A DNA stretch of 64,000 nucleotides, from IMG/VR virus record IMGVR_UViG_3300031902_000927; one strand, given 5' to 3'. The notes beneath the pieces were generated by a model. The model did no database searches and was not told the origin of the DNA. It worked only from the letters and a program-made list of their open reading frames with translations. This document shows positions 6,039-24,757 of the stretch, in pieces. Made by a program: the position numbers and the translations under genes. The stretch is from a virus (lineage: Duplodnaviria > Heunggongvirae > Uroviricota > Caudoviricetes). The first letter of the stretch is position 1; the number at the start of each line of letters is the position of its first letter.

Positions 6039-6323
6039 ATGCCACCCAAAGAACTCAAAATGAATATAAAGAAGTATTTTGATGACGGAGTTATGATAGA
6101 TGTAGTTTCTGTTGAAGACGTTTGCCAAGAAATGGAATCAATGAGAAATGAATTTAAAATGAAGTCAGATGCAATCAAGAAAGAAATTTTAGAAAATTTT
6201 GATTTGATTGCCGAAGAAGTTTATTGGAATAAAAAAGTTCAAACAAATACAATTCAAGAAGATAAGTTTATTGAAATGGTAAATAAAGCATTTCTAAAAA
6301 ATTTTGATGAGGAAGAAGAATGA
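6039..6323 (+). CDS. hypothetical acidic protein
   Basis: 94-aa ORF in chain. Confidence 0.4.
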   Translation: MPPKELKMNIKKYFDDGVMIDVVSVEDVCQEMESMRNEFKMKSDAIKKEILENFDLIAEEVYWNKKVQTNTIQEDKFIEMVNKAFLKNFDEEEE

Positions 6324-8045: not shown

Positions 8046-8497
8046 AGCCTTGGATTTACAAAGGTAAAGAATATACAAAAGCAGATGCGGAAATAGAAGC
8101 ATTTGTTTATTTAATTGTTGGTCCAGAAAAAACTTATATAGGAAAAAAGAACTTTTGGCATACGTTAAAAAGACCTCCAAAAAAAGGAAATAAGAATAAA
8201 AGACACGAAATAAAGGAAACAGAATGGCAATCTTATTGTGGTTCAAGTGAAGCATTATTAGAGGATATAAAAAAATTTGGAGAAGATAAATTTCATAGAG
8301 AAATATTGATTTTATGCAGCAAGAAATGTATTGCTTCTTATTTTGAATTATATTTTCAAATGCAAGAGAATGTTTTATTTGACACTTTTTCTTATAATAA
8401 TATTATTAATATACGACTTAACGGAAACATATTTCTTAATCATAAAGATGAATGTCGTAGAATTCTTAAAGAGCTTGAAGCTAAGAACAAATTTTAG
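8042..8497 (+). CDS. possible GIY-YIG-like nuclease domain protein
   Basis: FVYLIVGPEKTYIGKK resembles GIY-(9-11)-YIG, with downstream R/E; weak. Confidence 0.3.
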   Translation: MKPWIYKGKEYTKADAEIEAFVYLIVGPEKTYIGKKNFWHTLKRPPKKGNKNKRHEIKETEWQSYCGSSEALLEDIKKFGEDKFHREILILCSKKCIASYFELYFQMQENVLFDTFSYNNIINIRLNGNIFLNHKDECRRILKELEAKNKF

Positions 8498-8920: not shown

Positions 8921-9757
8921 ATGATTCATATCTGTAAACTAGCCTATATAAAAACACAAGATGGAATGGCATATAAGCGTTGTGTAGATATGATAAGATT
9001 TCAAGAAAATGTTACAGCAGGTCAAAGTACAGGTTTTGTTTGGCGTGATAGACAGGGATTTCACATAAGAAAATCTATTGGAAAAGTAAATTCATTTTTA
9101 GCAAAATATCCAGATATATTAACAAATGTTAATGAATGTTTAGGTCATTCAAGATGGGCAACAATTTCTCCAATCACAATTGATAATCAACATCCAATTC
9201 CAATTATGTACAAGGGAACAAAATTGGCTTATGGAGTTCATAATGGTACTTTTCACGAATATCAAAGTTATGAATATCTAAGAAATGACATTTCAAATAA
9301 GACCGATAGCGCGTTACTCTTAACGATGTTCGGTCGAATGTTAGAAAGACTTGGAGATTCAAAATTAAATAGAGTTAAATCATTTTCTTATATAATGTCT
9401 TTGATAAATCAAGGTAGTGGAAATCACAATCTTATAATTATGTTTAAAGACGGAATGGTTCTATTTAGCGGTAACGTATTAACTTACAAAGTTAATCAAA
9501 ATAATGTAGGAATTATGACTTTTGGTCTTCCAGAACAATGTCAAGATAATGTTATTTACGAGATTAAAGACTTTACAGTTATTCAACTTGATATGGTTGT
9601 ACCACCATTTAGATTTAAACCAAGAGAACCAAAGGTTTTAAAGGTTAAAACACAAAAATCAAAAAATTCTGTTCAAACTAATTTAGAATCTTTAGATGTT
9701 TATGAAACAGAAATGTCTAATTATGAAAGAGAAATGAGAAGAGATATGAGGCGATAA
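8921..9757 (+). CDS. class-II glutamine amidotransferase (Ntn hydrolase) domain protein
   Basis: Collinear with PurF/GlmS N-domain: Cys5, VTAGQ, LGHSRWATISPITIDNQHP, GVHNGTFHEY, NKTDSALLL, LIIMFKDGMVLFSGN; a 4-aa propeptide before Cys is implied. Confidence 0.6.
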   Translation: MIHICKLAYIKTQDGMAYKRCVDMIRFQENVTAGQSTGFVWRDRQGFHIRKSIGKVNSFLAKYPDILTNVNECLGHSRWATISPITIDNQHPIPIMYKGTKLAYGVHNGTFHEYQSYEYLRNDISNKTDSALLLTMFGRMLERLGDSKLNRVKSFSYIMSLINQGSGNHNLIIMFKDGMVLFSGNVLTYKVNQNNVGIMTFGLPEQCQDNVIYEIKDFTVIQLDMVVPPFRFKPREPKVLKVKTQKSKNSVQTNLESLDVYETEMSNYEREMRRDMRR

Positions 9758-9759
9758 TA

Positions 9760-10233
9760 ATGAAAATCAATCAAAAACAACACATTACAAAGAAAGGTGT
9801 AGTCAAGAGAAATCCTGGTAAAGTTAATTCGTATTTAGAATTACAAAATAAACATAAGAAAGATATTAGTAATTTTCCAATGATATTTGCTTTTAGTGAA
9901 GAGCAGCTTAAAGAAGGATTAAAAAAGCTCGGTGTTACAAAAGATAAAGTTGTTTCAGTTTATGGTGGAGCAATTATCAGAGCTACTGATAAAGATAAAT
10001 ATTTAGCAATGAATATTAGACACGATAGAGAGCACAAAGAAATGATGAATGATAAAAATTATGTCTATAATATGTTTAAATATGAATTAGCAAATCACGA
10101 ATACAGTTATACTTTAGATGATACTGATACTTTAAGGAGTTTAGGTCTAACAAAGGAGCAAGTTAATAATAATCTATTGTTGAGAGAACAGTTAGAAAAA
10201 GCAAAACATATAACAATTAAAAATGAAAGATGA
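9760..10233 (+). CDS. MKIN-tag family protein A (conserved 19-aa N-terminus, unique C-terminal body)
   Basis: MKINQKQHITKKGVVKRNP; 5' nucleotide module shared with 5 paralogs. Confidence 0.6.
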   Translation: MKINQKQHITKKGVVKRNPGKVNSYLELQNKHKKDISNFPMIFAFSEEQLKEGLKKLGVTKDKVVSVYGGAIIRATDKDKYLAMNIRHDREHKEMMNDKNYVYNMFKYELANHEYSYTLDDTDTLRSLGLTKEQVNNNLLLREQLEKAKHITIKNER

Positions 10234-10240
10234 GGCGAAA

Positions 10241-10579
10241 ATGAAAATTAACAACAAACAACATATTACAAAGAAAGGCGTAATAAAGAGAAATCCACCA
10301 AGTGCAAATAAAACAATATTATTGAAATTGAAAAATGATAAAGTTTTTTCTAAACCAGAATGGAGAACGATTGCCCACGAAAAAGATGAAGGTAAAATAA
10401 ATGATGATGAGATTTATTTTTATGTACCAAATCTTGTAAATTTCAATAAAATAAAAATAGGCGATATTGTAGAACTTGATGAAGATTTTGTAGTCGTTGA
10501 TATTTCAAGAGAATTTAAGACGGATAAATTTATGGTTAAACCAAATAAATTAAAACGTAAAAAAATGTTTTTTGAATAA
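10241..10579 (+). CDS. MKIN-tag family protein B
   Basis: MKINNKQHITKKGVIKRNP; 50-nt identity with copy E including TGAGGCGAAAATG junction; track ORF opens at 10223. Confidence 0.6.
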   Translation: MKINNKQHITKKGVIKRNPPSANKTILLKLKNDKVFSKPEWRTIAHEKDEGKINDDEIYFYVPNLVNFNKIKIGDIVELDEDFVVVDISREFKTDKFMVKPNKLKRKKMFFE

Positions 10580-10596
10580 ATTCAAGAGGATAAATT

Positions 10597-11631
10597 ATGG
10601 CTTGGACAATTTTAACAAATCGGACAGAAGGACACAATAAGTTTTGGAGTCACGATGAAGAAGGTAACGTTCATTGGGGTAGAATTGGAACTAGAGGTCA
10701 GTCTGGAAGATATGATATGTCAAATGTAATGCACAAAGAAATGCAAAAGTTGAGTAATGGTTATGTTCTTATTACTAGAAATGGTTCAACACCTTTCCCT
10801 GGAAGTGAGCAAGGAGATAGAATCGAAGCCGTAAGAGAAACTTTAAGACAAACAAGGACTGTAACACCACAATCATTTTCAAGAATCGTAAGAAATACAA
10901 GACAAAGAGTTCATCAATCAGAATCAAATATTTCCTTAGATACACAGGATGTAGAAAATTTAAGGACAGGTGGACACAATAGAAGTACAACTAACTCCGA
11001 AGGTATGAGAGTACCAGAATTTGATAGAAATCACAATGTTCCTAATGTAGATACTTATAAAACTGATGCAGCAGGTTATATTAAATATCGAACAGGTTAT
11101 AAGAGACAATCTTTTGATAATTATTCTTCTACTTTGAAAGTTATGAAAGTAAGCGAACTTGTAAATTCAAATTTGGTTGGTGTAGATAATCCATTTTTTA
11201 AGAAGGCTAAAGAGTATTTTAATAGAATACCAGGAGATTCTCAATATAATAAGCCAGAAAACTTTGAACAATTAAGAGAAAATCATCGTCCTACTTATGC
11301 AGTATTATATTCAGTTGAAAGAAATAATATAGAATGTGTTGCAATTTTTGGAGTAAATAGAAGTTTAAAATATTGTGATTTCTTATCTTTAAAAAAGAAT
11401 ACACCATATTATAGAACGATTTTAAAATATATTATTAAGAGTATTTCAAGATTTGTAGATGTTGATGGAAAAATAAATTTTAAAATAAAGAGTCCATCGA
11501 TTAGAAAAGAAATAAAAGAAATAGCAGATTATTATATTTCTACAACAGGAGATAATATTGTTTATAATGTAAGAGATTTACAAACTGGAATTTCCGAAGA
11601 TGAAGTTAAGCCAAAAAGGTGGATAGAGTGA
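10597..11631 (+). CDS. WGR-domain protein
   Basis: N-terminal NKFWSHDEEGNVHWGRIGTRGQSG matches the WGR domain signature; 3' end overlaps next gene. Confidence 0.55.
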   Translation: MAWTILTNRTEGHNKFWSHDEEGNVHWGRIGTRGQSGRYDMSNVMHKEMQKLSNGYVLITRNGSTPFPGSEQGDRIEAVRETLRQTRTVTPQSFSRIVRNTRQRVHQSESNISLDTQDVENLRTGGHNRSTTNSEGMRVPEFDRNHNVPNVDTYKTDAAGYIKYRTGYKRQSFDNYSSTLKVMKVSELVNSNLVGVDNPFFKKAKEYFNRIPGDSQYNKPENFEQLRENHRPTYAVLYSVERNNIECVAIFGVNRSLKYCDFLSLKKNTPYYRTILKYIIKSISRFVDVDGKINFKIKSPSIRKEIKEIADYYISTTGDNIVYNVRDLQTGISEDEVKPKRWIE

Positions 11632-13967
11632 GTATAATATACGGTATTGGAATCGAGCTTGAAACGTCATATAGTTTTTCAGATACCAATAGAGTAAGTA
11701 GAAATATGACAGTTCGACAAGCTCCAAATGAATTTAGAGCAGATGATAGTAGTTATTGGAATCCAAGAGATAAATGGAATAGAAGAGAAAGTGATTCAAA
11801 TTATGTTCAATTACACGGAGATTCTACAGTAAATGGAAATGCTAATGGTGGTGGTTTTGAATTTCAATTAACTGAATCAAAAGCATTAAATAAAAACCCA
11901 AAGCAGATGTGTAATTTATTATATGATTCAGTAAATGATGGAGCAAGAGTAGTAAAATCAACATTACCAAATGTTGTACCAAGTCATTTTGGAACACAAG
12001 TTGGTTATAATACTTCTCAAGCAAATGCTAAATTTGGTTCTTATCATTTAAATGTCACAATGCCTTATGAAAGTACAAAAATGTCTAATGAGGAATATGT
12101 AGAGAATTATAGAAAAAAATTATTTAAAGGTATAAAAGTTGTAAGAGTTCTTGAACCATTATTTATAGCTATGACAGGTGGAGCAGATTTAAAATCTGTT
12201 GGAACACCTTCAAGAGCAGAAGGTTCTGGAAGACAAGCATATTTAGCTTATGGAAATTTAGGTAATACTGCTTTAAAAGAAGAATTTAGAGATGCAATAT
12301 TCTCTGAAAATTCTAGCGACACAATGTTTAAGTATAATAATGAAGCACCACAATTTAAAGATAAAATTTCTACTACTTTAGACGATGATAATGTTTCAAA
12401 AGGTGAAGTAGGAGATATTGTTGTCAAACAATACGGTAATGTTAGTAGAAGAATAAGAACAATAGAGTTTAGATTTTTAGACCCATTCTTTGTACCAAAT
12501 TTTTATGAAGTTTGTAAAGTAATGATTGCTGCAATGGAGCACGGAGAAAATGTTGGAGATATTACAGATGCTAAAACAAATCAACATTGGAATGTAGCTG
12601 CTGCAAGAATTATTGAAGAAGGTTGGAACGCAAGATTACCAAAAGAATATCAAACCTTAATCAAAGATAAATTAGATTTGGACATAAAAGTTAAAGATAA
12701 CAAAAGAGCAGATTTAGTTTTCCAGGAAGTTGCTATAGCTTTATGGAATAAAAATAAAACAGGGTTATGGGTAAAATCAATGTTTGATGAATTATCCACA
12801 CCTAAAGTTTTAAATTTAAACAGATATAATTGGGATATGCAATTCCGTCATAGGTATGTTAATGAAGATAATTTTACGAATTATATTAACAAATTTATCG
12901 CTACATTAAAAAAGATAGATACATCCAGAAGTAATGGTTGGGTCAAAGTTACTTTTGATGCAAGTGGTAAAATAGTTATAAGAGATTTAATTCAAGATGA
13001 TGATAGATTTGGTGTAGATATGTCTTCAGAAGATTATGAGGATATTTTATTTTTATTAGAAAGAGTTGGCGCAGTCGAGTTAAAAACAGATGATGCAGGT
13101 GTTATTGAAGCATTAAAAGTTACAATTACTAATCCAAAAGATGTTATGAAAAAGATTGACAATTTACAATCGATTGAAGGAATTGAAGAAACTTATTTTG
13201 GAAGAGAAGAAAGAGCTTCAACTCCAAGAAGAACTGAAACAGAAACTAGAACAGTTCAACCTTCTCCAAGTGTTGGAAGACGAGAGGTAATCAGAGAAGA
13301 TGGAACTATCGATAATGATTTATTAATGATTAGAAGAGTCACTCCAGAAGTTGATTCAACATTATATTATAATGTAAGAGATTTGCAAGAAGTATTTAAT
13401 GCAGCAAGTTTTTTAGATGAATCAAGTCAGCAATTTAGAATTAAGATAATTCCTGCTTCGATTAAATATGATAATTCTGAAAGATTAAGTTTCTGGAAAA
13501 GAGAAGGATTAAATATAACAATTTTTATTAATTCAGATGATTTTGAAAATGATGAAGATAGAATTAGTACATTGATAAATAAAATGAAAAATAATTTTTA
13601 TTCATCTTTTTCTGTACATCGTTCAAATGTTTTTACAAATAATTTATCGGTTGAACAATTCTTTTCTCGTCTAAATACAGTCTCCACAACACATTATGAT
13701 AAAAGTGGTATGGAAAAGATTTCTTTAGATAAAGCAGGGCTTGAAACTTTAAAAGAATTTGCAATTAGAATTATTTCATTGTCAAGAGGAAAATCATATT
13801 TTATAACAGATAAAGTTAAATATGCAACATTGAAAAGAAGATTTGGAGAAAAAATACAATTAATAAAATATATGCCTTATCAAAAAGGAGTATTTGTTTC
13901 TAAGCAAGGAAATACATTTACTCTTGTGATGAATAATAAACAAATAGATGTTTTACGGAGGAATTAA
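11619..13967 (+). CDS. glutamine-synthetase-like amidoligase (carboxylate-amine ligase fold) with C-terminal extension
   Basis: N-terminal GIGIELE strand, GGGFEFQL, and SRRIRTIEFRFLDP matching GS motif ARRIEVRFPDP; 782 aa. Confidence 0.55.
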   Translation: MDRVSIIYGIGIELETSYSFSDTNRVSRNMTVRQAPNEFRADDSSYWNPRDKWNRRESDSNYVQLHGDSTVNGNANGGGFEFQLTESKALNKNPKQMCNLLYDSVNDGARVVKSTLPNVVPSHFGTQVGYNTSQANAKFGSYHLNVTMPYESTKMSNEEYVENYRKKLFKGIKVVRVLEPLFIAMTGGADLKSVGTPSRAEGSGRQAYLAYGNLGNTALKEEFRDAIFSENSSDTMFKYNNEAPQFKDKISTTLDDDNVSKGEVGDIVVKQYGNVSRRIRTIEFRFLDPFFVPNFYEVCKVMIAAMEHGENVGDITDAKTNQHWNVAAARIIEEGWNARLPKEYQTLIKDKLDLDIKVKDNKRADLVFQEVAIALWNKNKTGLWVKSMFDELSTPKVLNLNRYNWDMQFRHRYVNEDNFTNYINKFIATLKKIDTSRSNGWVKVTFDASGKIVIRDLIQDDDRFGVDMSSEDYEDILFLLERVGAVELKTDDAGVIEALKVTITNPKDVMKKIDNLQSIEGIEETYFGREERASTPRRTETETRTVQPSPSVGRREVIREDGTIDNDLLMIRRVTPEVDSTLYYNVRDLQEVFNAASFLDESSQQFRIKIIPASIKYDNSERLSFWKREGLNITIFINSDDFENDEDRISTLINKMKNNFYSSFSVHRSNVFTNNLSVEQFFSRLNTVSTTHYDKSGMEKISLDKAGLETLKEFAIRIISLSRGKSYFITDKVKYATLKRRFGEKIQLIKYMPYQKGVFVSKQGNTFTLVMNNKQIDVLRRN

Positions 13968-13968
13968 A

Positions 13969-14334
13969 ATGGGAAGAAGTGAATCTAATATTCAATCAAA
14001 TGATAGACCAATACAATCAAGAAATGTTAGTCGAGCAGATATAATTATATATAAATATAATCTTGAATGGAAGATTTTCGATATTACTGGAGAAGTGAGT
14101 CGTAATTCTAAACCATTTGAAACAAGAGATGAGTTAGATAGTTATTTGGCGTTATTAAAAAAGAAAACACCAAAGAACTTAAATCTTGTAGTCAATATAA
14201 GAGAATTATCTACTAATGAAATTATTGATAAGATGCACAAAGAACAAGGTAAAAAGAATTTCAAGAGGGTGAGAGATGATAGAGCATCGATTTTAAGAAT
14301 AGATAAAAGAAGAAGAACTGTGAGGATTAAATGA
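13969..14334 (+). CDS. hypothetical basic protein
   Basis: GGAGGAAT SD before ATG 13969; track ORF opens at 13948. Confidence 0.4.
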   Translation: MGRSESNIQSNDRPIQSRNVSRADIIIYKYNLEWKIFDITGEVSRNSKPFETRDELDSYLALLKKKTPKNLNLVVNIRELSTNEIIDKMHKEQGKKNFKRVRDDRASILRIDKRRRTVRIK

Positions 14335-15278
14335 AACAAAAACCTAAGAAGAGAGCAACAGTACATATTCGAGGTAGTCCACGTTCTACTAACCCTATTG
14401 CTATCACAGGTTCGAGTAGACTTAACGAAAAAGCTGTAAAGGTTCTTGGAGCAATTAAGTTTTCACCTTCTAGTATTTCCAGGGAAGATATTTCCGATGA
14501 AACTTCATTACAAAATATAGACGTGGAAAGACAAGTAAAATTATTGATTCAATTAAATTTAATAAAAATAAATTCTAAATTTCCACAATTTCCACAACAG
14601 GGTTGGAGAGTTTATACTACTCCAGAAGAGCATTTAAAAATAATTACAATTTTGAAGCAGCACGGAATGGAAGACCCAAGAACAGAAACAACTAGAGGAT
14701 TGCTTGGTGATTATTATCCAATAGGGTTGCAGCTCGAAGGTGATGGATTACAACAAGACCGTGGTAGAAGTTATACACAAGGAATAGTTGTAATTCCAGA
14801 ATTAGAATTTAGAACAGAAGCAATAGCAGTTATGAAAAAATTTAGAGATGAGATAAAACCATTTCAACCAAAAGAATTTTCACAAGAAGCAATATTGAAG
14901 AAAAAAGAAAAATGGGTTTGGTTTGTAAAAGAAATGTCAAGGGCTTATAGAGTACCAACACCAAACGTAACTTTTGGAATATTCAGCGAAGATTCTTGGA
15001 AAAGAGAAGGTTCATCAGCAAGAGATGATGAAGGTAATTCATCAAGTTTTAATCGTGGAACAAATACATTATATTTTACAGGAAGATTCAGTCTTGTGAC
15101 ATTATTGCACGAATTTGGTCACGCTAGAGGCTTTGACGAAACTGATGCTATAATTTGGTCGCAAAATTTTGGACTTAGAATATTTCCAGTCACTTTCAAT
15201 AGATTAATTAAAGATGTTAAGCCAGGAACACATATGCTTACAAGAAGCGATGAAACACAAAGGCAATTTGAGTTATAA
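14331..15278 (+). CDS. zincin-like metallopeptidase (HExxH)
   Basis: VTLLHEFGHARGFDETD near C-terminus. Confidence 0.5.
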   Translation: MKQKPKKRATVHIRGSPRSTNPIAITGSSRLNEKAVKVLGAIKFSPSSISREDISDETSLQNIDVERQVKLLIQLNLIKINSKFPQFPQQGWRVYTTPEEHLKIITILKQHGMEDPRTETTRGLLGDYYPIGLQLEGDGLQQDRGRSYTQGIVVIPELEFRTEAIAVMKKFRDEIKPFQPKEFSQEAILKKKEKWVWFVKEMSRAYRVPTPNVTFGIFSEDSWKREGSSARDDEGNSSSFNRGTNTLYFTGRFSLVTLLHEFGHARGFDETDAIIWSQNFGLRIFPVTFNRLIKDVKPGTHMLTRSDETQRQFEL

Positions 15279-15439
15279 TACAAATATCTCCAACTCTTTC
15301 CAGAAGTTTGGGGTTAATCGAACTTTGGAGTGTTGTTGGAGGAGGAATAGAATGAACAGATGGGAAAAGTACGAAAAAACAAAAATCGTAGATGAAGACG
15401 ATTATACTGTCGTGAACGGAATGATAGTGGAGAAATAAA

Positions 15440-15760
15440 ATGGACATAACTTATGAATTAAAAGTCAAAGAAAATTCATTTGGAAATGGAAGAGATTGGA
15501 GTATTATTTTAAGAAAAGGAAATATCTTTAAGGAATTTTGGCTTGGTAATAACATTAAAGTTGTTAGCAGAATACTACATATGAGAATGGATGAAGTTGT
15601 AAAATATTATAAAGAAAAATCTGGTTCGGATAATTTTGATGTTGTTAAAGACTATATCGCATCCGATATACTTAGAGAAGTGTTAAATACGAAGAAATTA
15701 ACACAAGAACAACTTGAAAACGCTATGAAATTAAATAACTTTCAGTTTGCAGTAGAATAG
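15440..15760 (+). CDS. hypothetical protein
   Basis: 106-aa ORF in chain. Confidence 0.4.
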   Translation: MDITYELKVKENSFGNGRDWSIILRKGNIFKEFWLGNNIKVVSRILHMRMDEVVKYYKEKSGSDNFDVVKDYIASDILREVLNTKKLTQEQLENAMKLNNFQFAVE

Positions 15761-15769
15761 GGTGATAAT

Positions 15770-15973
15770 ATGACAAAGATGAAAGCATATGATTGGTTGG
15801 CATTTGCCTTGTTAGTTGTCGGTGGAATTAACTGGGGACTAGGAATTTGGGACGTAAATCTCGTAACAATGTTGTTAGGAGTAGGAACAATAGCTACTAA
15901 AATAGTCTATGGTCTGGTAGGACTTTCAGGTCTTTACGGATTGGTTATGATGATTAAATTAGCAAATGACTAA
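15770..15973 (+). CDS. small two-TM membrane protein (DUF378-like GINWGL motif)
   Basis: LLVVGGINWGLGIW...GLVGLSGLYGL. Confidence 0.5.
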   Translation: MTKMKAYDWLAFALLVVGGINWGLGIWDVNLVTMLLGVGTIATKIVYGLVGLSGLYGLVMMIKLAND

Positions 15974-15977
15974 ATAA

Positions 15978-16004
15978 ATTTATTTTTATTTTTTATTTTA
16001 AAAT
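15978..16004 (+). promoter_or_regulatory. T/A tract ending TTTTAAAAT (copy 2 of conserved intergenic motif)
   Basis: ATTTATTTTTATTTTTTATTTTAAAAT, 11 nt before ATG 16016. Confidence 0.35.
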
Positions 16005-16015
16005 ATGGAGAAAAA

Positions 16016-16342
16016 ATGAAAATTAACAACAAACAACACATTACAAGAAGAGGAGTTATTAAGAGAAATCCAATGCCTAGAGAAATGTTTACTACAGGTG
16101 AATTAGCTTCAATTCAAAGACGAACAAATAATAATTATCATATTGAAAATCGTATCTTTATTGCAAAAAAGATAGGTTCAAAATTATTACCAGAATTTGA
16201 AAGAATTAAGAAAATAATTGATAAAGGACAAGGAATAAGTGGACAAGATTCAGAGGATGAATATAAATTATCACAACAATTAATGTTAGAATTAAAAAAT
16301 AATTATCCAGGTGTATATATTAAAGTACAACCTAGATTATGA
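16016..16342 (+). CDS. MKIN-tag family protein C
   Basis: MKINNKQHITRRGVIKRNP. Confidence 0.6.
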   Translation: MKINNKQHITRRGVIKRNPMPREMFTTGELASIQRRTNNNYHIENRIFIAKKIGSKLLPEFERIKKIIDKGQGISGQDSEDEYKLSQQLMLELKNNYPGVYIKVQPRL

Positions 16343-16354
16343 GGAGGAATTAAA

Positions 16355-16534
16355 ATGTCATCATTACCAATTGATGTATTAATAATATTATTTTTCGTTG
16401 TTATATTTTTGTTTGTTGCTTATGTATATACATTAGTAAGACAAGCAAAGAAAAAAGAATGGGTTTGGTTTGTTTTGACGTTATTAATCGGACCTGTTAT
16501 GTTTATTTATTGGCTTACTAAATTATTCAAATAA
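16355..16534 (+). CDS. small membrane protein (59 aa, below ORF-track cutoff)
   Basis: GAGGAGGAAT SD; two hydrophobic segments MSSLPIDVLIILFFVVIFLFVAY...VWFVLTLLIGPVMFIYWL. Confidence 0.35.
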   Translation: MSSLPIDVLIILFFVVIFLFVAYVYTLVRQAKKKEWVWFVLTLLIGPVMFIYWLTKLFK

Positions 16535-16652
16535 AATGAAAAGAAGATTTTTAAATAAAACAATGCAGCAACATTATGAGACTCTTGTAATTAAAGATGG
16601 ATTACATTGGAAGACGGCAGAAAAGCTAGTTAAGAAAATTTATGAGTAAAAA

Positions 16653-17021
16653 ATGGCAAATAAAAATATTTTAAATAATAAGTTTACATTTTATATTGTA
16701 TTATCAATATTTATATTTTTTATAGCGATGGCTATAATTACTTCCAATATTAATAGTAAATTGACAGATGATTCTAATATTTGTTTAGATGAAATTAGAA
16801 ATAATTCTTCGATGGATAGTAGTATAAATCGAATTCATTCTACGCTTTGTATAGACAAAATTAAAGATTCTTGGAAATTTAAGTATGTATCATTTTTTTA
16901 TAGACCTAATGTACCAAGTAGTGTTTCTGTAAATCATAATTATGAAAATTTTTGTACTATAGAGGTTGCAAATCAATTCGGTGTAGCAGATAATGTTTGG
17001 AGTTATTGTAGATATAGTTAA
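16653..17021 (+). CDS. hypothetical membrane-anchored protein
   Basis: N-terminal TM FYIVLSIFIFFIAMAIITS; Cys-containing. Confidence 0.4.
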   Translation: MANKNILNNKFTFYIVLSIFIFFIAMAIITSNINSKLTDDSNICLDEIRNNSSMDSSINRIHSTLCIDKIKDSWKFKYVSFFYRPNVPSSVSVNHNYENFCTIEVANQFGVADNVWSYCRYS

Positions 17022-17029
17022 GAAAATTT

Positions 17030-17509
17030 ATGGTGAATAAAATGTATGACGAAGAAGCACAAATAAAAAAGAATCAAGAATATAGAGCAATGATTGATAA
17101 AATAAGAAAAGATAGAATTGGAACAGGTAAAACAATCGATTATAAAGGTCACGTACTGGATGCTCGTTATGATGATGCTTCTGATTTAACTGGAACTATA
17201 GATGGAAATATAGAAATTGACATAGATGATGTAGACCAAAGAATAATACAACCAGAAGACGTAATAAAATTGTTAAAAGAAGTAGTAAATAAATATCCAA
17301 ATATTCATAATAATAAAATAAGGCCAAATACAAAATGGTTCAGTTTTGAAAGAGCTAAGAATTGTCAAAGAGTATTGCTTGAAAGAGGAATACAAACTCA
17401 TCTTGTTCGAACAACTAAATTAAATAAACTATCTGGACACAGAAAACCTGCTTATCTTGTTGAAAAGACTCCTTATCAAATAAACAAAGAAAAAGGTAGA
17501 TTAAGATGA
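17030..17509 (+). CDS. hypothetical protein
   Basis: 159-aa ORF; ATGA overlap with next gene. Confidence 0.4.
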   Translation: MVNKMYDEEAQIKKNQEYRAMIDKIRKDRIGTGKTIDYKGHVLDARYDDASDLTGTIDGNIEIDIDDVDQRIIQPEDVIKLLKEVVNKYPNIHNNKIRPNTKWFSFERAKNCQRVLLERGIQTHLVRTTKLNKLSGHRKPAYLVEKTPYQINKEKGRLR

Positions 17510-19011
17510 AAACTAACGACAAAATTAAAATAGTATTATTTACATTGATTGTAATAGTTGCAGCAATTATCTCATTAGTAATTGGTGGAAAGTTAGCTAT
17601 TACGAGTGGAGATTCTTATTATGAAGAAAGATGTATTGACGTTTCTACTTATTTATCACAGGGGTATAGCAGCGCAGGAACAGATGGAAGTGGATGCCCT
17701 TTGGCTAGTATAACTAATTCATTTAATTGTATAAAGACAGGTTATGGTGGTTATGGTGGCGGTGGAGGTATTCCTTATGGTAATGCTGATAGAATTTGTA
17801 AATCATATTTCGGTTCACTTTATTCATCACCATATTCATCTTCACAAACTTGGTATTGTTGTATGACATCAGTAGACACTAAAGGTGGTTTAGAAAAAGT
17901 ATTGAATACTTGTACTGCTGATTCTGGAGATTTACTCGTTGCTCAAAGTTTTTCTGGAGCAAAAACAATTACAAAAGATGATTTACAATATCCAATAAAA
18001 TCATTTTGTAGAGCACATCCTGCAATTATTACAGACGATGCACTTCATTCAAGTACAACTTCAACAAACGTTCCACAAGATTTAATTGATTCAAAATCCG
18101 TTTCAATAAATAGCGACCAAACAATCACAATATTTTATTATGTTGATGGAACTTATAATCTTCCACATTTATGTTCAAGCGCAGATAATTTGGCTTTGGA
18201 TGTAACTACAAATACTACTTGTAAATCTACTTTAGGATTTACATATATTTGTTCACAAGGAGTATTTGATGCTTTAACTGGAAGTTGTGTTGTACAACCT
18301 GGAATAAATCAAGTATGTTCACAAGGAAGATATGATGTTCAAACTGGAAATTGTACATATAATCCACCATTACAAGTTGAATGTCCAGAAGGATATACAT
18401 TTGATTCTACATCAAATTTTTGTTATAGAATTCCACAGTCAGAAGATACTTGTACTGCTCCTTACACATTATTCAGTCCAACAGAATCAGAATGTTCTGA
18501 TTTACAAGGAGTTTGGCAAACTTGTCCACAATGTCCTGTGGATAAAATTTGCGACCAAAGTATTTGCCAACAGAAGTGTTCAAAGGGTGTTGAATGTAGA
18601 TTTATACCAGATTTAACAATTATTTGTGGAGAGAATGAAGTATTAAATAATGGAAAATGTGAAGTTAATGGAACAACTGAAATTGTTTGTCCAACGGATA
18701 GTAAATGGTCTTCGGAATCAAATGCTTGTATTGTCACACCACAAGTTATTGTAAAATGTCCAGATGGAAGTAATGTAGTTGATGGACAATGTGTTAGTGA
18801 AGCAATTGGTTACAAACAATGTGATATGGCAACAGAAGTTTTAAACCAAGGAGAATGTGTTGCAATGACACAATTAATTGAGTCTGCGATTAAACCAACG
18901 ACTATACAATTGCAAAAAACACAAACATACAATACTTATTTGGTGTATGGACTTGCAGGAGCAATTATCATAATAATTTGCTTGAGCTTGATATTAATCT
19001 TTAAAAAATAA
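17506..19011 (+). CDS. cysteine-rich repeat surface protein with N-terminal signal-anchor and C-terminal TM
   Basis: Gly-rich GYGGYGGGGG; repeated C-x2-G-[FY]-x-[FY]-D-x2-TG-x-C units; C-terminal LVYGLAGAIIIIICLSLILIF. Confidence 0.5.
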   Translation: MKTNDKIKIVLFTLIVIVAAIISLVIGGKLAITSGDSYYEERCIDVSTYLSQGYSSAGTDGSGCPLASITNSFNCIKTGYGGYGGGGGIPYGNADRICKSYFGSLYSSPYSSSQTWYCCMTSVDTKGGLEKVLNTCTADSGDLLVAQSFSGAKTITKDDLQYPIKSFCRAHPAIITDDALHSSTTSTNVPQDLIDSKSVSINSDQTITIFYYVDGTYNLPHLCSSADNLALDVTTNTTCKSTLGFTYICSQGVFDALTGSCVVQPGINQVCSQGRYDVQTGNCTYNPPLQVECPEGYTFDSTSNFCYRIPQSEDTCTAPYTLFSPTESECSDLQGVWQTCPQCPVDKICDQSICQQKCSKGVECRFIPDLTIICGENEVLNNGKCEVNGTTEIVCPTDSKWSSESNACIVTPQVIVKCPDGSNVVDGQCVSEAIGYKQCDMATEVLNQGECVAMTQLIESAIKPTTIQLQKTQTYNTYLVYGLAGAIIIIICLSLILIFKK

Positions 19012-19024
19012 TGAGGTACATAAA

Positions 19025-19393
19025 ATGAATCAAATATTGAAAAAATCTTTAATGTTGGGTGGATTTGTAGCAATACTATCCATTATATATAATTTAATTA
19101 GAGGGTTTACAGACTATATTGCTCTTCCTATCGAAGCTATAATTGCAGGTGTCGTAATAAATTTTGTAATATTTATGGCCGCAGGATTCTTGATATTTAC
19201 TTTATTCAATAAAAATAAATTGAATATTTTATTGTCAAATATATTTTTAGTGATTGCTGCATTTATAACAATATGGATTGCTCCAAATGGTATTGTACCA
19301 AATATTGAACCATTAGTATTTTCATATTCAGTATTAGGAAAATTATTCATCGCTAATATAGCATTTATGTTAGTTTACTTTTTAGGAGAATAA
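19025..19393 (+). CDS. polytopic membrane protein
   Basis: 4 predicted TM segments. Confidence 0.45.
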   Translation: MNQILKKSLMLGGFVAILSIIYNLIRGFTDYIALPIEAIIAGVVINFVIFMAAGFLIFTLFNKNKLNILLSNIFLVIAAFITIWIAPNGIVPNIEPLVFSYSVLGKLFIANIAFMLVYFLGE

Positions 19394-19477
19394 ATGATTA
19401 ATTCAGACATTGAAAGTTATGAACAATTGATTGATGAAGCAATCAACGAATCAATAGATGATTTTTGAGAGGATAAA

Positions 19478-19789
19478 ATGATGAAAGTAGACCAAAATAC
19501 ACCACAATTTAAGAGCTTTTTCGAAGGAGCAAAGAAAATAGTTGAAGGACATTATGCGAGTCTTCCTTCAATGAATATACATTTAGAGTTTAAAGAAGGA
19601 CCTAAATATATTAAGATAATAGAACAAGGTAATCAACGTTCTGCCTTTGCTTTTGTTGATAGAGAAACTGGAGATGTATTAAAAACAGCTACTTGGAATT
19701 CTCCTGCAAAACACGCAAGAGGTAATATATTCGACCAATCGAATGGATTAAAGTATCTTGGTCCATACGGAATGGCTTATTTGAGGTAA
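19478..19789 (+). CDS. hypothetical protein
   Basis: GAGAGGATAAAATG SD. Confidence 0.4.
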   Translation: MMKVDQNTPQFKSFFEGAKKIVEGHYASLPSMNIHLEFKEGPKYIKIIEQGNQRSAFAFVDRETGDVLKTATWNSPAKHARGNIFDQSNGLKYLGPYGMAYLR

Positions 19790-19791
19790 AA

Positions 19792-20088
19792 ATGGACTAT
19801 AACGAAACATTAAAACAACTGGGTGGACAGAGATTCATAGTTATGGTTGGCGCAAGAGAATTAATGAAAGCACCACGTGGAACAAACACTATGTCTTTTA
19901 GATTTATGCAAGGAAAGGAAAAGATTACACATTTGATTATTTATTTGAATTCTATGGACACATATGATTTAGAGTTTGGAAAAATATTTGCACACACTTT
20001 TGTTTCCGTTAAAAAGGTAAAAGGAGTTTATGCAGACCAATTGCAGCAAGTTTTTACAGAAGTTACAGGTCTTAGAACACATTTATGA
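19792..20088 (+). CDS. hypothetical protein
   Basis: 98 aa; ATGA overlap downstream. Confidence 0.4.
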   Translation: MDYNETLKQLGGQRFIVMVGARELMKAPRGTNTMSFRFMQGKEKITHLIIYLNSMDTYDLEFGKIFAHTFVSVKKVKGVYADQLQQVFTEVTGLRTHL

Positions 20089-20561
20089 GGTTGAAAATGA
20101 ATGGAAAAGAAAAGTTAATGTGGACATTAATTATGATTGGAGGAATTTTATTAGCGTTAGTTGCTTCTATCGTCATTAATAATTATAGTCACAAAAATAC
20201 AGAGTTGTTACTATCAGATAAGTATGAATATATACAATTAGGTGTATATAATAATGCAACTAAAATGTGTGAATTTGAAAGATATAATTGTGATGCAGGA
20301 TTCACATTTAATGCAACTTTAGGTAGTTGTATAAATAATAAGAAAAATGATTTGAATTGTAAAACAGGAGCACAAATTGATGACAATACAGAGGCAATTT
20401 GTGGAAATAATATGTGTTATGATGAAGTAACAATGATGTGTATTGCTTATCCAAATATGTATGTTTGTCCTATCAATACAGATTATAATTCAAAGACAGA
20501 TAAATGTGAATATAGTAAAGGAAAACCAGAATGTATGTATCAACACTTTATTATTCCTTAA
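20085..20561 (+). CDS. cysteine-rich secreted/membrane-anchored protein (same Cys repeat type as 17506..19011)
   Basis: Signal-anchor; CDAGFTFNATLGSC unit. Confidence 0.45.
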   Translation: MRLKMNGKEKLMWTLIMIGGILLALVASIVINNYSHKNTELLLSDKYEYIQLGVYNNATKMCEFERYNCDAGFTFNATLGSCINNKKNDLNCKTGAQIDDNTEAICGNNMCYDEVTMMCIAYPNMYVCPINTDYNSKTDKCEYSKGKPECMYQHFIIP

Positions 20562-20594
20562 AGAACAAATTTTAGGTAAAAAGATTTATATACT
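20561..20594 (+). promoter_or_regulatory. 34-nt conserved element (copy 2), followed by dyad TAGCTTT-GG-AAAGCTA
   Basis: Identical to 8483-8516. Confidence 0.45.
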
Positions 20595-20701
20595 AATAGC
20601 TTTGGAAAGCTAATATGTAATAGAGGTATTTATTATGAAGAAGAAAATTGTTTCATTTAAAGCAAAAGGTAAAAAAATTAGTTTCAAAGTAAGGAGATAA
20701 T

Positions 20702-20953
20702 ATGGAAGAAAATCCGTTAAAAATAAAAAATTATAGAGGATATAAATTTTTATCAATAGTATTAAATTTAGATGCTTTTCAGAAAAGATTTGGTGTCAAA
20801 AAAGAACTAATGCTTGAATGTGGCAAGGGACAAGATTATGATGTAAATGTAATAAGAAAAGTTTTGAATAAAATTTATCCAAATCACTATTTAGTGAGAT
20901 ATATCGATACTGGAAATCAATATAACGATTATTTTATGATTTATACAAAATGA
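20702..20953 (+). CDS. hypothetical protein
   Basis: AAGGAGATAATATG SD; 83 aa. Confidence 0.35.
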   Translation: MEENPLKIKNYRGYKFLSIVLNLDAFQKRFGVKKELMLECGKGQDYDVNVIRKVLNKIYPNHYLVRYIDTGNQYNDYFMIYTK

Positions 20954-20966
20954 GGCGAAATTAAAT

Positions 20967-21095
20967 ATGTCTAAAAATATAAAAAATCCAATTGAAAATT
21001 ATTTAATTCAAAAGGCTTGGGAAATCCGTAGAAACGGAGAATTTGACGACTTAGATGTAGCTAAATTGATAATTAGAGGTAAAATTAATGTATAA
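20967..21095 (+). CDS. small ORF (42 aa), candidate antitoxin partner
   Basis: TGAGGCGAAA junction; overlaps start of RelE/ParE-like gene by 8 nt. Confidence 0.25.
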   Translation: MSKNIKNPIENYLIQKAWEIRRNGEFDDLDVAKLIIRGKINV

Positions 21096-21405
21096 GGTTA
21101 AAGTCGAAAAAGGAGTTAGTAAATATATTCACAAACTCGGCAGTAAGGAAAGAGAATATTTTTTAGAAAGATTTGATAAATTAAAATATGATAAAACTGG
21201 TTATAGGTTGTTAGATAGAAGTGGAAATGTCGAGCTTTGGGAATTACGATGTCAAAGTCACAGAGTTTACTATACTGTAGAAAATCAATTTATAGTTATT
21301 GAAAATGTTGAATACAAAGGTAATATTGACGTAAATGATGCTTCCAATAAAAATCAACAAGAAAATAAAATTAAATTTTTAAAAAAGAAATATTTGAGGA
21401 AATAA
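21088..21405 (+). CDS. RelE/ParE (Gp49-like) family toxin
   Basis: C-terminal ELWELRCQSHRVYYTVENQFIVIENVEYKG resembles the RelE/ParE core. Confidence 0.45.
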   Translation: MYKVKVEKGVSKYIHKLGSKEREYFLERFDKLKYDKTGYRLLDRSGNVELWELRCQSHRVYYTVENQFIVIENVEYKGNIDVNDASNKNQQENKIKFLKKKYLRK

Positions 21406-21407
21406 AT

Positions 21408-21848
21408 ATGTCAAAAGGAATTAATTTAGAATTACCAAAATTTAATTGGGAGTTAGGAATTGTAGTTCTTGCTATAATATTTTTTATAGTTATGGATGCT
21501 TCTCAAAATATCGCACAGAGTTCTTTAACACCTTTCACACAAATGACTTGGTGGGGATTATCGGCTTTGGTATCTTGGTGGTTGTTCTTCTCTTTGTATA
21601 ATTTAATGTTATTCTTTGTATTCGGAAGAGCATTACGTTCAAGGGCAACATCTTACAAATATGATGTAATTGCAGGTATTGTTGCATTTGTCGGTTTAAT
21701 ATTTATTCTCGGCGCAGGTATTTTTGCATTTTATGGAGCAGGTGATACACCAATTCCTTATATGCTTAATATTCCTCAAATTACAGTTTATCACGTAGGA
21801 ATCGGTTGTCAAATTTCGGCATTATTATATTTTTTAATCACGGAGTGA
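21408..21848 (+). CDS. polytopic membrane protein (paralog of 22439..22882)
   Basis: 4 TM segments; ...ALLYFLITE C-terminus. Confidence 0.45.
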   Translation: MSKGINLELPKFNWELGIVVLAIIFFIVMDASQNIAQSSLTPFTQMTWWGLSALVSWWLFFSLYNLMLFFVFGRALRSRATSYKYDVIAGIVAFVGLIFILGAGIFAFYGAGDTPIPYMLNIPQITVYHVGIGCQISALLYFLITE

Positions 21849-21852
21849 AAAT

Positions 21853-22437
21853 ATGAAAATTAATCAAAAACAACATATTACAAGACGAGGAGTAGTTAAA
21901 AGAAATCCAGAGAAGAAAAATTTTTCAAATAAATTACAAATTTTTTCTGGACATTATAAAGGAAAGATAGATGGAAAAATACAAGATTTAGATTTTAATC
22001 TATATAATAATGAAGGATTGAATTATAATAAAACAAAAGAAGCAATAATGTATAATATGAATAGAAAACATCTTGGACCAATGCGAGTTTTATTTGCAAA
22101 GGCAGGTTTGACGCTAAAGAAATTTCAATGGTATTCACCAAATGCTTATAATTATTCTGGAGATGGTGTCGATTTAGTAATAAGTGTTTCTGATAGAGAA
22201 TTATTAAAAAGATTCATCATACATCATTCTAAAGAAATTCAAACGATGCTTGATGCAAACACATCTTATGATGGATATATGGCAACAACTTCTAGTGATA
22301 TTAAAGAAATAATCGAGAAAATAGATAAAGATTTTGATATAGATATTATGGTTATCTCTTTTATTCAATCGTTATATGTAATGGATATGTATAATGATTT
22401 ATTTGATTTATACGTTAATGAAGACGAGGAAAATTAA
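21853..22437 (+). CDS. MKIN-tag family protein D
   Basis: MKINQKQHITRRGVVKRNP. Confidence 0.6.
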   Translation: MKINQKQHITRRGVVKRNPEKKNFSNKLQIFSGHYKGKIDGKIQDLDFNLYNNEGLNYNKTKEAIMYNMNRKHLGPMRVLFAKAGLTLKKFQWYSPNAYNYSGDGVDLVISVSDRELLKRFIIHHSKEIQTMLDANTSYDGYMATTSSDIKEIIEKIDKDFDIDIMVISFIQSLYVMDMYNDLFDLYVNEDEEN

Positions 22438-22438
22438 G

Positions 22439-22882
22439 ATGGGAATTAAATTTGGATTAAGTCGTGGATTTGAACTTTTCTGTATTGGCTTAATGTTATT
22501 TTCATTAATGGCATTATTTCAAGAAACATCAATTTTTCGTCAAGAGGGTTTAACTTGGCAACCTCATTTGATTAGTGGAATTCAATTTAGTGGCGTTGCT
22601 GCATTTATAGTAACTATAGTTGTATTTCATATAGCATTTTTTATAGTAATATCAAGAAGTGTTATTGTTGAAGGCAGAAATAAAACGAGTAATTGGATTG
22701 ATTATGTTGTAGGATTTTTAGGAATTATAGGAATTTATTTTGTTGCAATGTCTACCTTTTATGTTTTATACAAAAATTTACCTAATATTGAATTTTTATT
22801 TAATATATCTACTTTAACACTAATGAGAATAGGATTTGGTATTGAAGCATTAGTTACATTATGGTTCGGATTAACGGAGTGA
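22439..22882 (+). CDS. polytopic membrane protein (paralog of 21408..21848)
   Basis: ATG 22439 one nt after upstream stop; ...LVTLWFGLTE C-terminus. Confidence 0.45.
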   Translation: MGIKFGLSRGFELFCIGLMLFSLMALFQETSIFRQEGLTWQPHLISGIQFSGVAAFIVTIVVFHIAFFIVISRSVIVEGRNKTSNWIDYVVGFLGIIGIYFVAMSTFYVLYKNLPNIEFLFNISTLTLMRIGFGIEALVTLWFGLTE

Positions 22883-22884
22883 TT

Positions 22885-23232
22885 ATGATGAAAGATATAA
22901 CAATTAAAAATGAAGGTAATTATGCAAAAGTATATCGTAAAGATATGTATATTGGAATTGTTAAAACATATCGATATAATATGAATGATGTAAATATTGA
23001 AGATATAACAGTTAAAAAACAAGGAATTTATATAAGAGTTTATTGGAAAGGACAACGTATGTGGACTGAAAACACCAAGAATATTTTAAAAAGTAATGGC
23101 GCAACTAGATTTAAAATGTTTGCCTCAATATATCATTTGATGTTAAAACAACCTTTTATTCCAAATGGAATGGAAGAATTACACAAAAAAGAAATTAATC
23201 ATAATAAACATTATCCTTATGGAGACGATTGA
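22885..23232 (+). CDS. hypothetical protein with internal duplicated 25-aa motif
   Basis: DITIKNEGNYAKVYRKDMY / DITVKKQGIYIRVYWKGQR. Confidence 0.4.
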   Translation: MMKDITIKNEGNYAKVYRKDMYIGIVKTYRYNMNDVNIEDITVKKQGIYIRVYWKGQRMWTENTKNILKSNGATRFKMFASIYHLMLKQPFIPNGMEELHKKEINHNKHYPYGDD

Positions 23233-23380
23233 ATGGTAACACATCTTGGAGATAGTAGAAGAAGAACTACATTAAGTGAACATAGACTTTTAGAAAATTA
23301 TCGAGAAGTAAATGAGAATCCGAAAATTAATACTCATTCTCCAGATGGTCGAGAAGAAATTTATATGAAATGAGGCGAAA

Positions 23381-23878
23381 ATGAAAATTAACAACAAACA
23401 ACATATTACAAAGAAAGGTATTGTTAAGAAGAATCCACCAAGTTGGAAAGATAAGTGGAAAAAGATAGCAGACAACAATTATGAAGTTGTTTTTGATTTA
23501 ATTAATATTAATAGTCCAGGTAGTGAAATTCCTTTGAAAAGAGTAAGTGTAATCAATGATTATACAGGAAGTACAGATAAATATGATTTGAATGATGCTT
23601 CTTGGTCGGTTGTAATCGCCAGTAACAATAAAGAAAGTTTTGAAAGTTTTATGGGTAAAAAAGCAGCAATGGATTATGCTATGGAGTATATGAAAAATAA
23701 TTCCAAAGTAAAAATAATACAAAATGTTTTAAATGAGAAAGAGCAGAAAATAGATAATGTTGGTAAAAGAAATTATTCCATTGACACAAAAGGTGGATTC
23801 ATTCATAAAGGAGCAGATTATTTTTTAGGTCCAGACCCAAGAAAACATAAAGATTATAAAAGATTAAAAGGTAAATAA
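23381..23878 (+). CDS. MKIN-tag family protein E
   Basis: MKINNKQHITKKGIVKKNP; 50-nt identical 5' module with copy B. Confidence 0.6.
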   Translation: MKINNKQHITKKGIVKKNPPSWKDKWKKIADNNYEVVFDLININSPGSEIPLKRVSVINDYTGSTDKYDLNDASWSVVIASNNKESFESFMGKKAAMDYAMEYMKNNSKVKIIQNVLNEKEQKIDNVGKRNYSIDTKGGFIHKGADYFLGPDPRKHKDYKRLKGK

Positions 23879-24166
23879 AATGGTAACACATCTTAAAAAA
23901 GAACTAAACTTGAAATCAGAAATTTTTCGTGGAGTTAAAGTTACTTTTAAGAAAAATGCTTTTGGATTAGTTATCGCAAGTTCAGCAGGTTATCCTTCAG
24001 AACCATATAAGAATAAAAAAGGAGCATTTCATCAGGTGATGTTGTAGATACAACGACAACTTCAACTGAAATGACTAAGACTACTATAACAAAAACATCA
24101 TTTGTCGATAATATTAAAACATTTTTCACAGATTTATTTGACATATTGATGTTTTGGAAATAAACA

Positions 24167-24379
24167 ATGAACTTTTTTAGATTTTTTATAGAAGTAATGA
24201 AAAGAATTTGGAAGGTTGCATTAGGATTATTTTTACTACCCTTTGGATTTGTTATTGCTTTATGTTATATCATTGTTTGTTTATTTACTTTTAGTATTCC
24301 AGATTCAGAAGAGCACAAAGATTTAAATTATATTGGTGTAAAAAGTTTCGAAAATATTAAAGAAGGAGTGTTAGGATAA
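24167..24379 (+). CDS. small membrane protein
   Basis: Two TM segments. Confidence 0.4.
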   Translation: MNFFRFFIEVMKRIWKVALGLFLLPFGFVIALCYIIVCLFTFSIPDSEEHKDLNYIGVKSFENIKEGVLG

Positions 24380-24757
24380 ATGAAAATCAATCAAAAACAA
24401 CACATTACAAGGAGAGGAGTTATTAAAAGAAATCCTACGAAGTTTAATAATAAGGATTTAGATTATGTGTATAAGTTAGGTGTAAAAGCTTTTAAAGATG
24501 GTAAAAAAGCTATTCCTCATTTAGATGTTGAAATGAATAATTTTATTCAAAAAAAGAAATTTAAAGTTGGAGAAGCTACTCCATATTTAAAAAAGTGGTA
24601 TGAAGGATGGAATTCAATTAATATTAAACAAAATATTTATTGTGTGACTTGTGGAGATAAGTTGAGTTCTACGGAAATTAAAAATGGTGAAGATACTTGT
24701 TATCCTTGTCAGAAAGGTAACACTCCAGAAAGTCAAGAAGAAGCTAATGCAAACTAA
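24380..24757 (+). CDS. MKIN-tag family protein F (with zinc ribbon)
   Basis: MKINQKQHITRRGVIKRNP; CVTCGD...CYPCQ. Confidence 0.6.
   Translation: MKINQKQHITRRGVIKRNPTKFNNKDLDYVYKLGVKAFKDGKKAIPHLDVEMNNFIQKKKFKVGEATPYLKKWYEGWNSINIKQNIYCVTCGDKLSSTEIKNGEDTCYPCQKGNTPESQEEANAN

Follow-up and report, generated by a model that had tools for sequence, protein, structure and literature searches.

Why would six scattered genes of one virus-like element begin with the same 19 residues and then go on to encode proteins that have nothing further in common? This question is raised by a stretch of 64,000 nucleotides of IMG/VR record IMGVR_UViG_3300031902_000927, referred to below as the window, which is part of a 105.6-kb metagenomic contig seen in many samples. 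The six open reading frames (ORFs), genes A to F, all lie on the + strand, and their products have the common N-terminus MKIN[QN]KQHIT[KR][KR]G[VI][VI]K[RK]NP, which is invariant at 13 of its 19 positions. We will use the term “tag” for these 19 residues and “body” for the rest of each protein. The tag is modular and strictly N-terminal, purifying selection acts on it as a peptide, its bodies are diverse, and tagged genes occupy variable slots. By analogy with known systems, we tentatively propose that it is an address recognised by a single common partner and that its likeliest purpose is incorporation into a particle and delivery with the DNA, a reading to which we give somewhat less than an even chance. 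The six genes are the following.

9760..10233, + strand: gene A, 157 aa; tag 9760-9816; body Pfam DUF7659, residues 25-149
10241..10579, + strand: gene B, 112 aa; tag 10241-10297; body without a family, fused to WGR in relatives (P0009)
16016..16342, + strand: gene C, 108 aa; tag 16016-16072; directly 3' of a DUF378 membrane-protein gene
21853..22437, + strand: gene D, 194 aa; tag 21853-21909; body without a family, acidic (isoelectric point 5.2)
23381..23878, + strand: gene E, 165 aa; tag 23381-23437; C-terminal motif YFLGxDPxKHKDYK
24380..24757, + strand: gene F, 125 aa; tag 24380-24436; body a CxxC...CxxC zinc ribbon

A preliminary description of the sequence had reported these six starts, the common 19-mer and the lack of similarity after it, and both the ORFs and an all-against-all BLASTP comparison of the window ORFs agree. 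The comparison links A to F only through residues 1-19, at most ~1-37, and no body-to-body similarity is seen among them. The tag and one unrelated pair of small paralogues are the sole paralogy in the window. A six-frame motif scan of the 64 kb finds no seventh copy, and a 29-nt tag probe finds 4 sites at ≤3 mismatches, against 0 in 100 shuffles. The two subtypes described earlier, INNKQ in B, C and E and INQKQ in A, D and F, are present, as is the CxxC ribbon ascribed to one body, which is that of gene F and gives a weak Pfam DZR match. An alternative start of gene B at 10223 gives 118 aa, and gene callers choose 10241. Gene C has tagged orthologues in two related contigs, L010 and L024. The motif YFLGPDPRKHKDYKRLKGK at the C-terminus of gene E (residues ~143-165) recurs at the C-terminal end of P0021, which is also tagged (70% over 20 aa); judging from this sequence match, the motif may be a second short portable module.

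The tag beyond the window

The distribution of the tag has been examined with an exhaustive profile search of 1.84 billion 50%-identity cluster representatives at E up to 1e-3. An exhaustive search is needed, as word-indexed protein searches with tag profiles yield just 2-5 proteins. The search gives 46 matches, of which 42 bear the tag and 4 are repeat-protein artefacts. The earlier proposal of a constant N-terminal module on unrelated cargo is thus extended to 42 further cluster representatives, almost all with unrelated bodies. A degenerate DNA pattern for the tag adds seven loci in JGI and TARA metagenomes, and the tag is found on other genes in contigs L007-L024. The number of tagged genes per sampled stretch is 6 in 74 kb for the window contig, 4 in ~18 kb for the L014/L009 contig, 3 each in 17-20 kb for L022 and L024, and 2 for L007. 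The elements that carry it are AT-rich (25-32% GC) and come from wetland, freshwater, polar-lake and marine metagenomes. With degenerate DNA patterns, the tag is not found in 185,579 GTDB species genomes.

In true matches the tag starts at residue 1-3, with a single exception at residue 30 that is probably a mis-called start. The tagged proteins span 41-236 aa. Across 47 aligned tags, K2, H8, T10, G13, K16, N18 and P19 are invariant and N4, Q7 and I9 nearly so, while the 3-5 residues that follow are variable and Lys-rich. The net charge is about +6 over the 19 residues. An extra residue after the Met is tolerated (MVK-, MAK-, MTK-), and one natural variant ends KSNR, not NP.

The preliminary description did not recognise the 19-mer as part of any described family, and this holds in the libraries searched. 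Searches of Pfam, PHROGs and NCBIfam give no match for the tag, its profile matches nothing in the PDB at E up to 10, and the searchable literature holds nothing relevant on the tag sequence or on the Pfam names of the bodies. Several familiar identities have been considered and rejected. A Sec, Tat or lipoprotein signal peptide does not fit a peptide without a hydrophobic core, with no more than 2 consecutive hydrophobic residues and with a Lys-rich linker next to it. An AT-hook is rejected for the lack of a GRP core and the variability of positions 11-12, and a 2A-like NPGP skip site because the residue after NP varies. Homology to an HU arm or to bL35/bL34 is rejected on unfit spacing, in a visual comparison only.

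An all-vs-all BLASTP comparison of 47 bodies gives only six related pairs, none of them among the window six. The majority of bodies have no family at all. Those with a Pfam domain comprise DUF7659, DUF5049 (two proteins), WGR (two proteins), DUF6876, LPD29 (E = 4.3e-7), ART-PolyVal (below the Pfam cut-off) and zinc ribbons, and the gene A body matches DUF7659 at E = 3.7e-38. An ENCP4 match inside the B body is sub-threshold (E = 0.07, 13.7 bits vs a cut-off of 31.4). Two outcomes had been named that would speak against a portable module, and neither is seen. If the 19-mer were the start of a single globular domain, it would not be followed by several different ones, and yet five to six different Pfam domains come next in the sequence, their starts lying at about residue 24 or later. 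If the bodies were of one fold, they would not include an ART fold, a WGR domain, a zinc ribbon and a helical DUF7659.

Homologues of the bodies that lack the tag, which the preliminary description had suggested looking for, do exist. Among 13 DUF7659 homologues, 4 are tagged and 9 untagged, and the untagged ones begin exactly where the tag ends. WGR is tagged in L011 and in P0009/L024, where it is fused behind a B-type body, and it forms the untagged N-terminus of a protein of 339-344 aa that is conserved among the window, L014 and L024, so that both states occur even in one contig. Since DUF7659 and WGR both occur without the tag, the tag is a modular add-on. In P0009 (L024 10001-10588), one tag precedes a B body that has been joined to a second copy of the WGR found in the neighbouring core gene. 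By comparison with the window (10241-11631), this arrangement shows that genes have fused, and domains have accreted, downstream of the tag.

The same separation is predicted in three dimensions. In an AlphaFold2 model of gene A built on a 13-sequence alignment, the body has a predicted local distance difference test score (pLDDT) above 90. The tag is modelled outside it as a flexible beta-hairpin with strands at residues 7-10 and 13-16, at pLDDT 64-68. A Foldseek comparison of this model with the PDB gives nothing below E = 0.9.

Peptide-level selection and variable slots

The preliminary description held that the conservation extends to the DNA, and that the 5' segment might drive recombinational shuffling of 3' cassettes. 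The clearest DNA-level feature is a perfect repeat at genes B and E, reported at ~50 nt and measured here at 49 nt, which takes in 11 non-coding upstream bases.

10230..10278, + strand: 49-nt block, first copy; Shine-Dalgarno (SD) region and first 12-13 codons of gene B
23370..23418, + strand: 49-nt block, second copy, at gene E; identical to 10230-10278

Beyond this block the claim of DNA conservation calls for a correction. The proportion of synonymous differences (pS) among the six window tags is 0.556, against 0.555 for unaligned control codons, and is therefore saturated, while the proportion of nonsynonymous differences (pN) is 0.081, giving pN/pS = 0.15. For 18 tags from several contigs pN/pS is 0.26, and nearly every codon shows synonymous variation across 18-24 tags. 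Saturated pS together with low pN means that selection acts on the peptide, not on a DNA or RNA element, and the likeness of the six tags at the DNA level is essentially what the peptide and the biased codon usage lead one to expect.

A few observations point the other way. Identical codons at same-residue positions number 2292, against 2132 expected from genome codon usage, a slight excess in which no tag pair is significant after multiple-test correction. In the B/E pair, 14 of the 15 codons agree (uncorrected p = 0.007), and RR tags written with the rare codon pair AGA-CGA are seen in gene D and in five genes on other contigs. The block with its non-coding bases and the recurrent AGA-CGA suggest, at the sequence level, that an SD-plus-tag segment has now and then been copied in front of new bodies, and to this extent the earlier idea of recombination retains a hint of support. 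As the main cause, a DNA-level feature would mean that the SD and first codons serve as a recombination substrate, translational operator or enhancer and that the peptide is incidental. The block, the AGA-CGA pair and the small codon excess fit such a feature; the control-level pS, the synonymous variation and upstream regions that cannot be aligned beyond the SD do not. This explanation is largely refuted, and we consider it highly improbable.

The position of tagged genes also varies. Genes A and B fill a slot between two genes that are both conserved.

9757..10597, + strand: variable slot between a GATase-like gene (8921-9757) and the WGR gene
10597..11631, + strand: untagged WGR protein, 344 aa; N-terminal WGR, tagged in relatives L011 and P0009/L024

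The same slot is empty in L014, and in L024 it holds two tagged and three untagged small genes. The orthologue of gene A in L014/L009 sits elsewhere, adjoining three other tagged genes. More generally, the relatives have scattered genes in common with the window and with each other.

Known systems and rival readings

An invariant N-terminal 19-mer on unrelated small cargo, selected as a peptide and carried by genes that exchange slots, argues for one common recognition partner. In the mechanism that we favour, a lineage of uncultured AT-rich virus-like elements would fit the tag to small accessory proteins that can be exchanged, so that they are all recognised by that partner. The tag would take the form of a short basic beta-hairpin, QHIT, a two-residue turn and G[VI][VI]K, capped by the invariant Asn-Pro and joined to the following domain through 3-5 residues. 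The partner would most likely be particle-assembly or delivery machinery, so that the particle would take up the tagged proteins and bring them, along with the DNA, into the next cell. A single binding partner of the tag, its identity with the virion or delivery apparatus, and an early action of the bodies against the host are all inferences.

The closest system is that of the T-even phages, and this closeness, with the match of two bodies to polyvalent-protein families, is the reason for favouring loading and delivery. The T-even internal proteins are highly diverse defence proteins in which only a capsid-targeting sequence (CTS) of 10-19 N-terminal residues is conserved (PMC3012670; PMC9026906), and the processing determinants of the CTS have been described (PMC9026906). 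T4 Alt is an ADP-ribosyltransferase that is packaged and injected (PMC5512222). The CTS of IPI, IPII, IPIII and Alt is, like the tag, a short N-terminal peptide on otherwise unrelated, fast-exchanged small proteins, and A to F likewise have only residues 1-19 in common. The T4 cargo comprises anti-restriction proteins and an ADP-ribosyltransferase encoded in variable loci, and the tagged genes also lie in variable slots. The mode of action would be similar, without homology. The T4 CTS ends at a gp21 site (Glu at P1, L/I-x-E type), whereas the tag has a strongly basic character and a predicted beta-hairpin shape, with Asn-Pro at its end; all 47 aligned tags end K-[RKN]-N-P with no conserved Glu. 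The tag stands outside the T4 CTS family, since it neither resembles the CTS in sequence nor has a Glu-type cleavage site, and T4-type head genes are not detected in the window. The capsid-targeting analogy of the preliminary description nevertheless appears reasonable as an analogy, and it is strengthened by the LPD29 and (sub-cut-off) ART-PolyVal bodies and by the variable slots.

The definition of these two families comes from polyvalent proteins, for which delivery along with the DNA is predicted (PMC5512222). Some tagged bodies, LPD29 and (below the cut-off) ART-PolyVal, thus match domains of the polyvalent proteins of Iyer et al. 2017, and the role proposed for both sets is that of effectors at or just after entry. 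The tag-B-WGR fusion, in which domains have accumulated after the tag, is a further likeness. Polyvalent proteins join 2-15 domains in one giant polypeptide, whereas tagged proteins are small (41-236 aa), mostly single-domain and encoded by separate genes. The tagged set would then be an unbundled arsenal in which each small domain has its own copy of the tag.

Other systems are less close. Encapsulin cargo-loading peptides and the encapsulation peptides of bacterial microcompartments (BMCs) are, like the tag, short terminal peptides with a linker that address diverse cargo to a shell. However, the encapsulin peptides are mostly C-terminal and the BMC peptides are amphipathic helices, while the tag is an N-terminal, basic, predicted hairpin of far more invariant sequence. 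No encapsulin or BMC-H/P shell family is found in the window, where the sub-threshold ENCP4 match in the B body is the sole related one. The markers of polymorphic secreted effectors (MIX, LXG and others) also combine a constant N-terminus with variable C-terminal cargo, but they are folded domains of at least ~100 residues that are tied to secretion systems, and here no secretion system or hydrophobic signal is present. The suggestion of a secreted-effector leader is consequently a poor fit for a tag without a hydrophobic core.

Several results weigh against loading and delivery. Degenerate DNA patterns do not find the tag in IMG/VR viral contigs, and the tag has no likeness to the T4 CTS in sequence or cleavage motif. 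Among window ORFs of ≥70 aa, Pfam and PHROG searches detect no capsid, portal, scaffold, prohead-protease or terminase family, a receptor gene is likewise not found, and the tagged genes lie amid replication and small accessory genes with no identified structural module around them. The element itself is putatively viral. Two relatives share a syntenic six-gene module (L020 13013-19560 and L022 1124-7436, with proteins of 566/637, 167/164, 322/341, 114/125 and 227/240 aa and, after them, a DUF87 HerA/FtsK-type ATPase), possibly for morphogenesis or packaging; the L020 and L018 modules have no PHROG match and the L022 module no PDB sequence match. The ART-PolyVal match is below the Pfam cut-off (E = 1.4e-5, 26.3 bits vs 31.2). 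The anti-host theme draws on few families because most bodies have no annotation. Finally, the charge of the bodies is mixed (23 acidic, 19 basic), so they do not form a uniformly DNA-binding set as the T4 internal proteins do.

The modularity and the invariant polar residues would fit equally well with a docking motif for a common intracellular partner outside any particle, recruiting accessory proteins to one site in the infected cell. Candidates for such a partner are a host hub (RNA polymerase, ribosome, nucleoid or chaperone) or the element's own J-domain protein (6320-6862), and both the nearby DnaJ-domain gene and the position of tagged genes amid replication and early-type genes are consistent with docking. 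Yet simple docking needs neither a strict N-terminal place nor small cargo; we regard it as unlikely. A shared N-terminal degron or processing leader, through which a host or element protease would achieve timed removal or activation, is improbable. It agrees with a tag at the extreme N-terminus whose sharp, invariant N18-P19 edge is followed by variable sequence. The window also encodes a protein with an HEXXHXXGXXD motif (14331-15278) and a transglutaminase-like cysteine-protease fold (55361-55966). However, the HEXXH protein belongs to no Pfam protease family, its single-sequence AlphaFold2 model is unusable (pLDDT 35), and the natural variant has KSNR in place of NP. In addition, peptide bonds before proline are poor protease substrates. 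The cleavage after Asn-Pro once suggested is unsupported, and no protease gene is found in the window.

The charge of the tag and its Lys-rich linker have a simple counterpart in a nucleic-acid-binding basic arm, which would tether proteins to RNA or to the DNA of the element, where the tether might of itself bring about co-packaging; the WGR and zinc-ribbon bodies are nucleic-acid-related. This reading is quite improbable, as the near-invariance of H8, T10, N18 and Q7 across distant elements exceeds what non-specific charge needs and the tag is unlike AT-hooks or any PDB chain. The least probable of all is a nascent-peptide element, in which 19 residues ending in Asn-Pro would pause the ribosome via the exit tunnel and co-regulate the tagged genes. 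Arrest peptides resemble the tag in their ~19-aa length and invariant C-terminal proline, and selection at the peptide level agrees with such a role. On the other hand, the arrest peptides that are known mostly have a leader ORF of their own, the tag tolerates an additional residue next to the Met, and there is no supporting context.

Other genes of the element and the meaning of the tag

The window has 28.5% GC, and nearly all genes up to ~58.7 kb lie on the + strand. It encodes PolB, a helicase, an Rv2179c-like exonuclease, a DNA ligase and ParB, together with the J-domain protein, a Band-7 protein and many small cysteine-rich or membrane proteins. The closest PolB of a cultured phage has <25% identity, and a PolB-based search for related loci in viral and genome collections gives no relatives. 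A scan for sigma-70 promoters and terminators shows no enrichment over shuffles. A conserved block comprises the WGR protein and proteins of 782, 128 and 315 aa. The last (14331-15278, + strand; 66% identity in L014) contains HEFGHARGFDE, an HEXXHXXGXXD zinc motif of the metzincin/snapalysin type, and on this motif is a candidate peptidase, although Pfam gives no match. The conserved 782-aa and 315-aa proteins have no PDB sequence match.

Several mobile-DNA genes are present in the element and its relatives. Three homing-endonuclease-type genes lie within the 64 kb (GIY-YIG SegE-like, 8042-8497; LAGLIDADG, 35211-35855; HNH, 48333-48638), and inteins occur in the DUF87 ATPase of L018 and L020. 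TnpB (OrfB_IS605) and tyrosine integrases are found in relatives (L007 9310-10452 and 11292-11525; L018 12793-13647), which suggests that some members of the lineage may integrate into the host genome.

Among the surface-type genes, 60668-64000 (- strand) encodes a 1110-aa protein with a signal sequence, a C-terminal membrane anchor, dense N-x-S/T sequons and repeats such as NRNLTYYP. These features suggest a protein of the surface or for receptor binding that may be glycosylated, and such a putative glycoprotein hints at an archaeal or otherwise N-glycosylating host. Further secreted or membrane-anchored proteins, rich in cysteines and sequons, are encoded at 25788-26864, 17506-19011 and 53069-53599 (all + strand), one of them with tandem NITQNITQNITQN; a short motif is common to 17506-19011 and 54191-54601. 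The genes at 8921-9757 (class-II glutamine amidotransferase-like, N-terminal nucleophile), 27172-27618 (GGACT/AIG2-like gamma-glutamyl cyclotransferase) and 55361-55966 (membrane-anchored, transglutaminase-like) form an unusual trio whose predicted functions hint at gamma-glutamyl or isopeptide chemistry. The pair of small paralogues (47208-47429 and 48663-48860) has 76% identity.

Returning to loading and delivery, a broader form of the proposal is that large AT-rich mobile elements of a lineage not recognised before share a single 19-residue beta-hairpin, which would serve as a loading tag for any small protein that acquires it. Such a protein would dock on a dedicated receptor of the particle or the transfer machinery and travel along with the DNA. 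We consider this form possible but doubtful. Such a loading tag would be a non-covalent, exchangeable version of the polyvalent proteins, and the tags might assemble different effectors into one complex. The tag itself is new to the searched libraries and literature, while a constant targeting peptide on variable cargo is a known idea.

If loading and delivery prove true, nature would have supplied a new system of protein packaging and a ready tool for cargo loading, and the 19-residue tag, if it suffices for targeting, could help to engineer particles with chosen cargo. For the biology of these uncultured elements, the tag would then flag the proteins that they send ahead with their DNA. The resulting list of candidate anti-host effectors would number at least 45, mostly without a known family, and the logic of the T4 CTS would have evolved independently in an unrelated lineage. 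Whatever the partner, the extreme invariance of a free-standing 19-mer on unrelated proteins marks a specific and testable recognition system.

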